Part shown: piece after piece, positions 24,006 through 24,066 of the stretch
Position numbering within the stretch: the stretch's first letter is position 1
Layout: the number at the start of each line of letters is the position of its first letter
Sequence record: PP384393
DNA length: 40,943 nucleotides
Source of the DNA: Teseptimavirus T7
Direction: 5' to 3' (one strand)
The notes under the pieces: generated by a model
The model's database searches: none
Seen by the model: only the letters and a program-made list of their open reading frames with translations
Told to the model about the DNA's origin: nothing
Program-made: the position numbers and the translations under genes

Positions 24006-24066
24006 AAACACGTGGCAAACATTCCAAACCGGAGCCATACAGTACAAAGCACTCTTAGGCCTCTGT

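Follow-up and report, generated by a model that had tools for sequence, protein, structure and literature searches.

The window analysed here is the whole of sequence record PP384393, a stretch of 40,943 nucleotides of Teseptimavirus T7 DNA given as one strand, 5′ to 3′. In it the gene for the major capsid protein, gene 10A, ends at the stop codon TAA (24003-24005), and immediately downstream lie 61 nt (24006-24066, AAACACGTGGCAAACATTCCAAACCGGAGCCATACAGTACAAAGCACTCTTAGGCCTCTGT) that the original prediction had set apart as an unassigned junction segment, with a backbone of pBR322/pET type on their right. The features of the locus, in coordinates of the window, are as follows:

22968-24005, plus strand: gene 10A (major capsid protein), intact by its open reading frame and by the V01146 annotation; its stop codon adjoins oho1
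23976-24065, minus strand: footprint of primer gp10-oho1-as, comprising the oho1 tail and the last 30 nt of gene 10A with the stop codon; exact match
23987-24058, plus strand: 10A/10B slippery site and altered -1 frame, closed by TAG at 24056-24058 (translation)
24006-24065, plus strand: 'oho1', a 60-nt synthetic orthogonal overhang; 60/60 match to published primer tails
24006-24084, plus strand: footprint of primer oho1-mcherry-s; exact match at 24006
24006-24025, plus strand: first 20-mer of oho1, AAACACGTGGCAAACATTCC, with a PmlI site at 24009-24014; passes the filters of the orthogonal primer set and is the putative primer 1
24026-24045, plus strand: second 20-mer, AAACCGGAGCCATACAGTAC, named 'GSP2' in a preprint
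24046-24065, plus strand: third 20-mer, AAAGCACTCTTAGGCCTCTG, with StuI at 24057-24062 and, closing the -1 frame, the TAG at 24056-24058
24066-24084, plus strand: plasmid priming site TACCCACGCCGAAACAAGC (= pIVEX2.3d-seq1-s), the first vector-derived sequence (Supplementary Data 2)
24066-24226, plus strand: pBR322 tet(C)-derived backbone of T7p14-mCherry, 5′ of the T7 promoter, with BglII at 24207 (megablast)
24227-24305, plus strand: T7 promoter and gene-10-type leader/RBS driving mCherry (annotation of sister records)
24306-25016, plus strand: mCherry coding sequence, 236 aa (open reading frame; PP384395 annotation)
25017-25111, plus strand: vector polylinker remnant from T7p14-mCherry, untranslated
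25112-25216, plus strand: 105-bp Tphi segment common to the plasmid cassette and native T7, with a hairpin at 25176-25211

Apart from this insert the window is almost entirely wild-type T7. Positions 1-24005 align to positions 1-24004 of V01146, and the stretch from about 25109 to 40943 aligns to V01146 24102-39937. As the 160-bp direct terminal repeats are intact (1-160 and 40784-40943), the window represents a full-length linear genome (40,943 bp). Outside the insert it departs from V01146 in just two places: an A is inserted at 1897, and A>G at 22630 changes gp9 (N227S). Both changes, listed as '1896 A addition' and '22629 A>G', are marked 'Y' in every phage made by PHEIGES, a cell-free phage-engineering method (Levrier et al., Nat Commun 2024;15:2223, PMC10933291; Supplementary Data 3), and thus they are stock markers of the T7 of that laboratory.

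The primer table of the same publication (Supplementary Data 2, PMC10933291) accounts for the segment base by base. Positions 24006-24065 agree with the upper-case 5′ tail of the primer oho1-mcherry-s (AAACACGTGGCAAACATTCCAAACCGGAGCCATACAGTACAAAGCACTCTTAGGCCTCTGtacccacgccgaaacaagc) at every base (60/60), and all 79 nt of this primer are found without a difference at 24006-24084. A second primer, gp10-oho1-as (90 nt, CAGAGGCCTAAGAGTGCTTTGTACTGTATGGCTCCGGTTTGGAATGTTTGCCACGTGTTTttactccactttgaaaaccactgcaccagc), matches exactly in reverse complement at 23976-24065. The flanks are those that the primers dictate, namely the final 30 nt of gene 10A with its TAA on the 5′ side and tacccacgccgaaacaagc on the 3′ side. 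According to the assembly map of the phage T7-mC-g10-o (PMC10933291), fragment T7C1 is obtained with the primers T7C-s1 and gp10-oho1-as, fragment T7C2 with gp10-oho2-s and T7C-as, and the mCherry fragment with oho1-mcherry-s and oho2-mcherry-as on the template T7p14-Mcherry. We therefore read 24006-24065, with a probability of about 0.97, as the PHEIGES overhang oho1, brought in by the 5′ tails of two primers and left in the genome as a scar. The window represents phage T7-mC-g10-o or a phage derived from it; because the second overhang, oho2, is missing (see below), it counts as a variant of the design.

The right boundary of the overhang can be placed to the base. The plasmid priming site pIVEX2.3d-seq1-s (TACCCACGCCGAAACAAGC; Supplementary Data 2, PMC10933291) begins with the T at 24066. 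At this base the published primer changes from overhang to plasmid-annealing part, and homology to tet(C)/pET-type plasmids also starts exactly here (megablast with window 24030-24310 as the query, matches from query base 37). As both the homology and the primer switch fall at 24066, the synthetic unit is 24006-24065, 60 nt long. The 61-bp segment of the original prediction was thus correctly placed, except that its last base belongs to the plasmid priming site, and the string quoted for it had 63 letters from 24004 and so took in both A's that end the stop codon. Its view that the DNA is foreign to T7, pBR322 and pET is borne out for 24006-24065 by the V01146 alignment and by the plasmid homology that starts at 24066, and the PmlI (CACGTG, 24009) and StuI (AGGCCT, 24057) sites that it reported are both there. 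Judged by its sequence, the segment is real, correctly located and neither T7 nor vector. It is also already known, as the documented cloning scar of a published engineered phage, and has little biological importance in that capacity; the practical value of the assignment lies in annotation, as it shows exactly where native, plasmid-derived and synthetic DNA meet in this genome.

The purpose of the overhang is described in the paper. In PHEIGES, PCR fragments of the genome are given a short chew-back with exonuclease III from E. coli, after which they anneal through their overlaps, and the annealed genome is put into a cell-free transcription-translation reaction, which yields phage (PMC10933291). 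Natural T7 overlaps let unedited T7 through at about 1:10^3; once the cassette was flanked on either side by 60-nt artificial overlaps, omission of the insert gave no phage (PMC10933291). Orthogonal oligonucleotides were adopted for leak-free insertion, and they were meant to block the assembly of unedited wild-type genomes (PMC10933291). By this scheme, gp10-oho1-as amplifies the T7 fragment up to the stop codon of gene 10A, and oho1-mcherry-s amplifies the T7-promoter-mCherry-Tphi cassette from plasmid T7p14-mCherry, each adding the oho1 tail. The overhang thus acted as the left annealing handle that joins T7C1 to the mCherry fragment in the exonuclease-based in vitro assembly. The original prediction had offered a synthetic linker or a primer-binding site among its possibilities, and these came close, as the linker consists of three orthogonal PCR-primer sequences; it had the synthetic origin right, and the real purpose, a 60-nt overlap for exonuclease/annealing assembly, did not figure in it.

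In the finished genome oho1 would be a passive scar with no designed biological function. With the cassette placed between gene 10A and the one Tphi that is left, oho1 should be transcribed within the phi10 late transcript. We infer that it is inert in vivo, although the -1-frame (10B) reading is altered. The 60-mer shows nothing special in its secondary structure (fold z = 0.20), and 24006-24065 contains no sigma-70 promoter-like or terminator-like consensus; a structured RNA or DNA element, a promoter and a terminator within the segment were ruled out on these grounds. The overlaps used in Gibson, SLIC and ExoIII assembly, as well as 'unique nucleotide sequence' linkers, are also synthetic, non-coding, low-structure annealing handles added by primer tails, and they likewise persist as a scar in the product. 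What distinguishes oho1 from them is that a whole phage genome is booted in cell-free extract, and that the overlap is made of three validated primers and not of a purpose-computed linker.

The 60-mer consists of three 20-mers joined end to end. The orthogonal-oligonucleotide library used in PHEIGES is attributed there to ref. 45 (Subramanian, Russ and Ranganathan, 2018; PMC10933291), and the primers of that study (Synth Biol 2018, PMC7445780) are mutually orthogonal and 20 nt long. The filters for that set called for a G or C end, A below 45%, GC of 40-60%, C of 20-30%, a Tm of at least 58 °C and exclusion of BamHI, EcoRI, HindIII and BsrDI sites (PMC7445780). All three 20-mers of oho1 end in G or C, and they have A below 45%, GC of 45-50%, C of 30% and none of the four excluded sites. 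Their nearest-neighbour Tm is about 56 °C, a value obtained with other parameters than those behind the threshold of at least 58 °C and not comparable with it.

An independent preprint of 2026 (bioRxiv 10.64898/2026.04.06.716859) names the second 20-mer as a universal priming site, 'GSP2 (5′-AAACCGGAGCCATACAGTAC-3′)', and this usage of GSP2 was the only one returned by a full-text search for the three 20-mers. The nine 20-mers of PHEIGES (those of oho1, oho2 and the T7mini overhangs 21, 23 and 24) stand in alphabetical order, as would be expected if oho1 were made of primers 1-3 of a sorted list. That the set includes the first and third 20-mers is suggested by the citation in PHEIGES, by the filter check and by this order. 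The set and oho1 are alike in their 20-nt units and in their composition and restriction-site filters, and the second unit bears a name in the style of the set (GSP2), but they differ in use: the primers of Subramanian et al. de-multiplex oligo pools, whereas in oho1 three such sequences are concatenated as a 60-nt annealing overlap.

Among 50,697 phage records searched by BLAST, the segment was found in PP384395 and PP384397 only, both of them engineered T7 ('Mutant Teseptimavirus T7 clone recombinant T7_mCg17o' and 'T7_mCg1o', respectively). In both records this 60-mer opens the same cassette, which is inserted behind gene 17 in PP384395 and behind gene 1 in PP384397. When the three junctions were aligned, the upstream sequences differed (gene 10A, gene 17 and the region downstream of gene 1), while from 24006 on they were identical. 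This shared boundary indicates that the segment travels with the mCherry cassette as its first element. The two sister genomes have in common with the window the 60 nt, the cassette (1,211 nt) and the stock markers, but, unlike the window, they keep oho2. A further record, PP384396 (T7_compile), is the non-orthogonal T7-mC-g10, which also carries mCherry 3′ of gene 10A with an added T7 promoter, but has neither oho1 nor the pBR322-derived backbone. In that genome the native 10B-specific sequence is kept to ...GCTAACAAAGCC and the promoter follows; the overlap was natural T7 sequence, with a wild-type leak of about 1:1000 (PMC10933291).

The insertion point affects the reading of gene 10B. The slippery site (G GTT TTC, 23987-23993) survives in the primer, which replaces all that followed the 10A stop codon. 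The -1 frame now reads QSGVKTRGKHSKPEPYSTKHS, 21 residues made up of QSGV and KTRGKHSKPEPYSTKHS, and ends at TAG 24056-24058. The wild-type 10B tail has 56 residues, of which QSGV alone is shared here, followed by 17 new residues and the stop; the conserved C-terminal tail of 10B is not encoded by the -1-frame open reading frame. By this translation the natural reading frame of 10B is lost through the scar, and normal gp10B could not be made from this genome. Small amounts of a 21-residue gp10B* tail, with part of its residues encoded by the scar, may be produced. Any frameshift product would probably be rare. The long-range frameshift stimulator that has been described (PMC5009743) sits in Tphi, roughly 200 nt 3′ of the site of the shift, and in the window the Tphi hairpin (25176-25211) is about 1.2 kb from 23987, a distance that departs from the spacing of about 200 nt.

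We considered whether the segment might be a C-terminal extension put there on purpose, either a display peptide or a new 10B tail, and reached by -1 frameshifting, as the original prediction had also proposed with its designed short 10B tail. The preserved G GTT TTC would fit such a design, as would a -1 frame that spans most of the segment, with QSGV and KTRGKHSKPEPYSTKHS before the TAG at 24056. However, the same 60 nt stand after gene 1 and after gene 17, places without a frameshift, their sequence is that of three off-the-shelf primers, the gp10 fusions in the paper use a separate 3xFLAG design (PMC10933291), and the frameshift stimulator in Tphi now lies about 1.2 kb away, so that a designed tail is highly improbable. 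As the same 60-mer was placed after genes 1 and 17, the new -1-frame tail is better seen as an accidental by-product of primer design.

A barcode, another of the earlier suggestions, would mark a phage clone or a library member. Such a reading could draw on the synthetic nature of the segment, on its confinement to a few engineered genomes and on the validation of the source primer set with barcoded templates (PMC7445780), but an identical 60-mer that occurs in three different constructs at three loci identifies nothing, and the paper and its primer table assign to it an explicit role, that of the assembly overlap 'oho1' (PMC10933291). We regard the barcode as just as improbable as the designed tail.

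The search for another source of the 60-mer extended to natural sequences. The alignment to wild-type T7 (V01146) breaks off at 24005 and is picked up again at about 25109, with no part of the 60-mer aligned; an exact match to wild-type T7, the observation that the original prediction had named as the one that would speak against it, is therefore not found, and an origin in wild-type T7 is ruled out. A vector origin of 24006-24065 is ruled out as well, as plasmid matches begin only at 24066, and in PLSDB (72,556 plasmids, 75-nt query) the only match was one of 22 nt, expected by chance (E=7). There were no matches in 5,426 complete E. coli genomes, which rules out the host, and other natural origins were ruled out by the lack of an exact match to the segment in the IMG/VR viral contigs and to its central 40-mer in the 185,579 species genomes of GTDB. 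A T7Select or other display-vector polylinker was discarded too, since the phage and plasmid records that match are PHEIGES genomes only. Natural DNA acquired by recombination from the host, another phage or a plasmid backbone, an idea to which the ready recombination of T7 and the plasmid origin of the adjoining sequence lend some colour, has a negligible probability, given a synthetic primer tail that matches exactly and no match in E. coli, plasmids, IMG/VR, GTDB or non-engineered phages.

With oho1 established as the left overhang, the right junction of the cassette departs from the design. The assembly map places oho2 past the cassette terminator, followed by T7 sequence from AACCTTAACGCCAGCACAGG (PMC10933291). 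The overhang oho2, which begins AAAGGGGCCGTCAATATCAG, is found in PP384395 and PP384397 (L001 2718-2777 and L002 2712-2771), but in the window it had no match with up to 3 mismatches allowed, and the T7C2 primer site is absent as well. We built the design in silico by joining window 1-24005, the 1,271-bp cassette of PP384395 and V01146 from 24069, which gave 41,145 bp. This sequence contains a 105-bp direct repeat, Tphi, with a spacing of 202 bp, and when one 202-bp repeat unit is taken out the result is exactly the window (40,943 bp). Relative to the design, oho2 (60 nt), a 37-nt 10B remnant and one copy of Tphi are lost, and the cassette's own Tphi is fused directly to the native sequence upstream of gene 11.

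Three routes could lead to the 202-bp loss. The Tphi copies may have annealed in place of oho2 during assembly; the Tphi repeat may have recombined later (Kong and Masker, 1994, as cited in PMC5630979); or a short-read assembler may have collapsed the repeat. The sequence fits all three, and the PHEIGES paper and its supplements make no comment on a loss of oho2 or on recombination at Tphi. We somewhat favour the view that the 'leak-free' design was bypassed at its right end through the 105-bp Tphi homology, with the loss of oho2 and 142 further bases. If so, the deposited T7-mC-g10-o differs from the published map, and, provided that the repeat was not collapsed in the read assembly, repeats of about 100 bp in reporter cassettes would be unstable in T7 booted in cell-free reactions. 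The 202-bp shortfall is the one mildly useful new point, and it cautions that duplicated T7 terminators or promoters may be prone to recombination.

The cassette is identical to the mCherry-annotated cassette of PP384395 over 1,211 nt. The part next to oho1 (24066-24206) is a passenger of about 140 bp derived from tet(C) of pBR322 and lying antisense to tet(C); it is there because the cassette primer reused pIVEX2.3d-seq1-s, which sits well upstream of the T7 promoter. The promoter itself is labelled 'T7 promoter added for mCherry cassette' in the records of the sister genomes. Downstream of mCherry, the polylinker remnant holds an XhoI site, a Gly-Gly-Ser-His6 coding run (His6 at 25044-25061, untranslated), two stop codons and further sites including BamHI at 25105. 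The vector from which it remains is presumably pIVEX2.3d, which the paper names only by way of the sequencing primer.

The cassette also introduces a second repeat. Positions 24221-24304 are an 84-bp direct duplicate of the phi10 promoter and gene-10 leader/RBS at 22882-22965, and the two copies differ once, by A>C at 24270, with loss of the XbaI site in the cassette copy. These 84-bp repeats flank gene 10A, which is essential, and a deletion between the copies should be lethal. The lethality of losing gene 10A may be the reason why the 84-bp repeat survives and the Tphi repeat does not.
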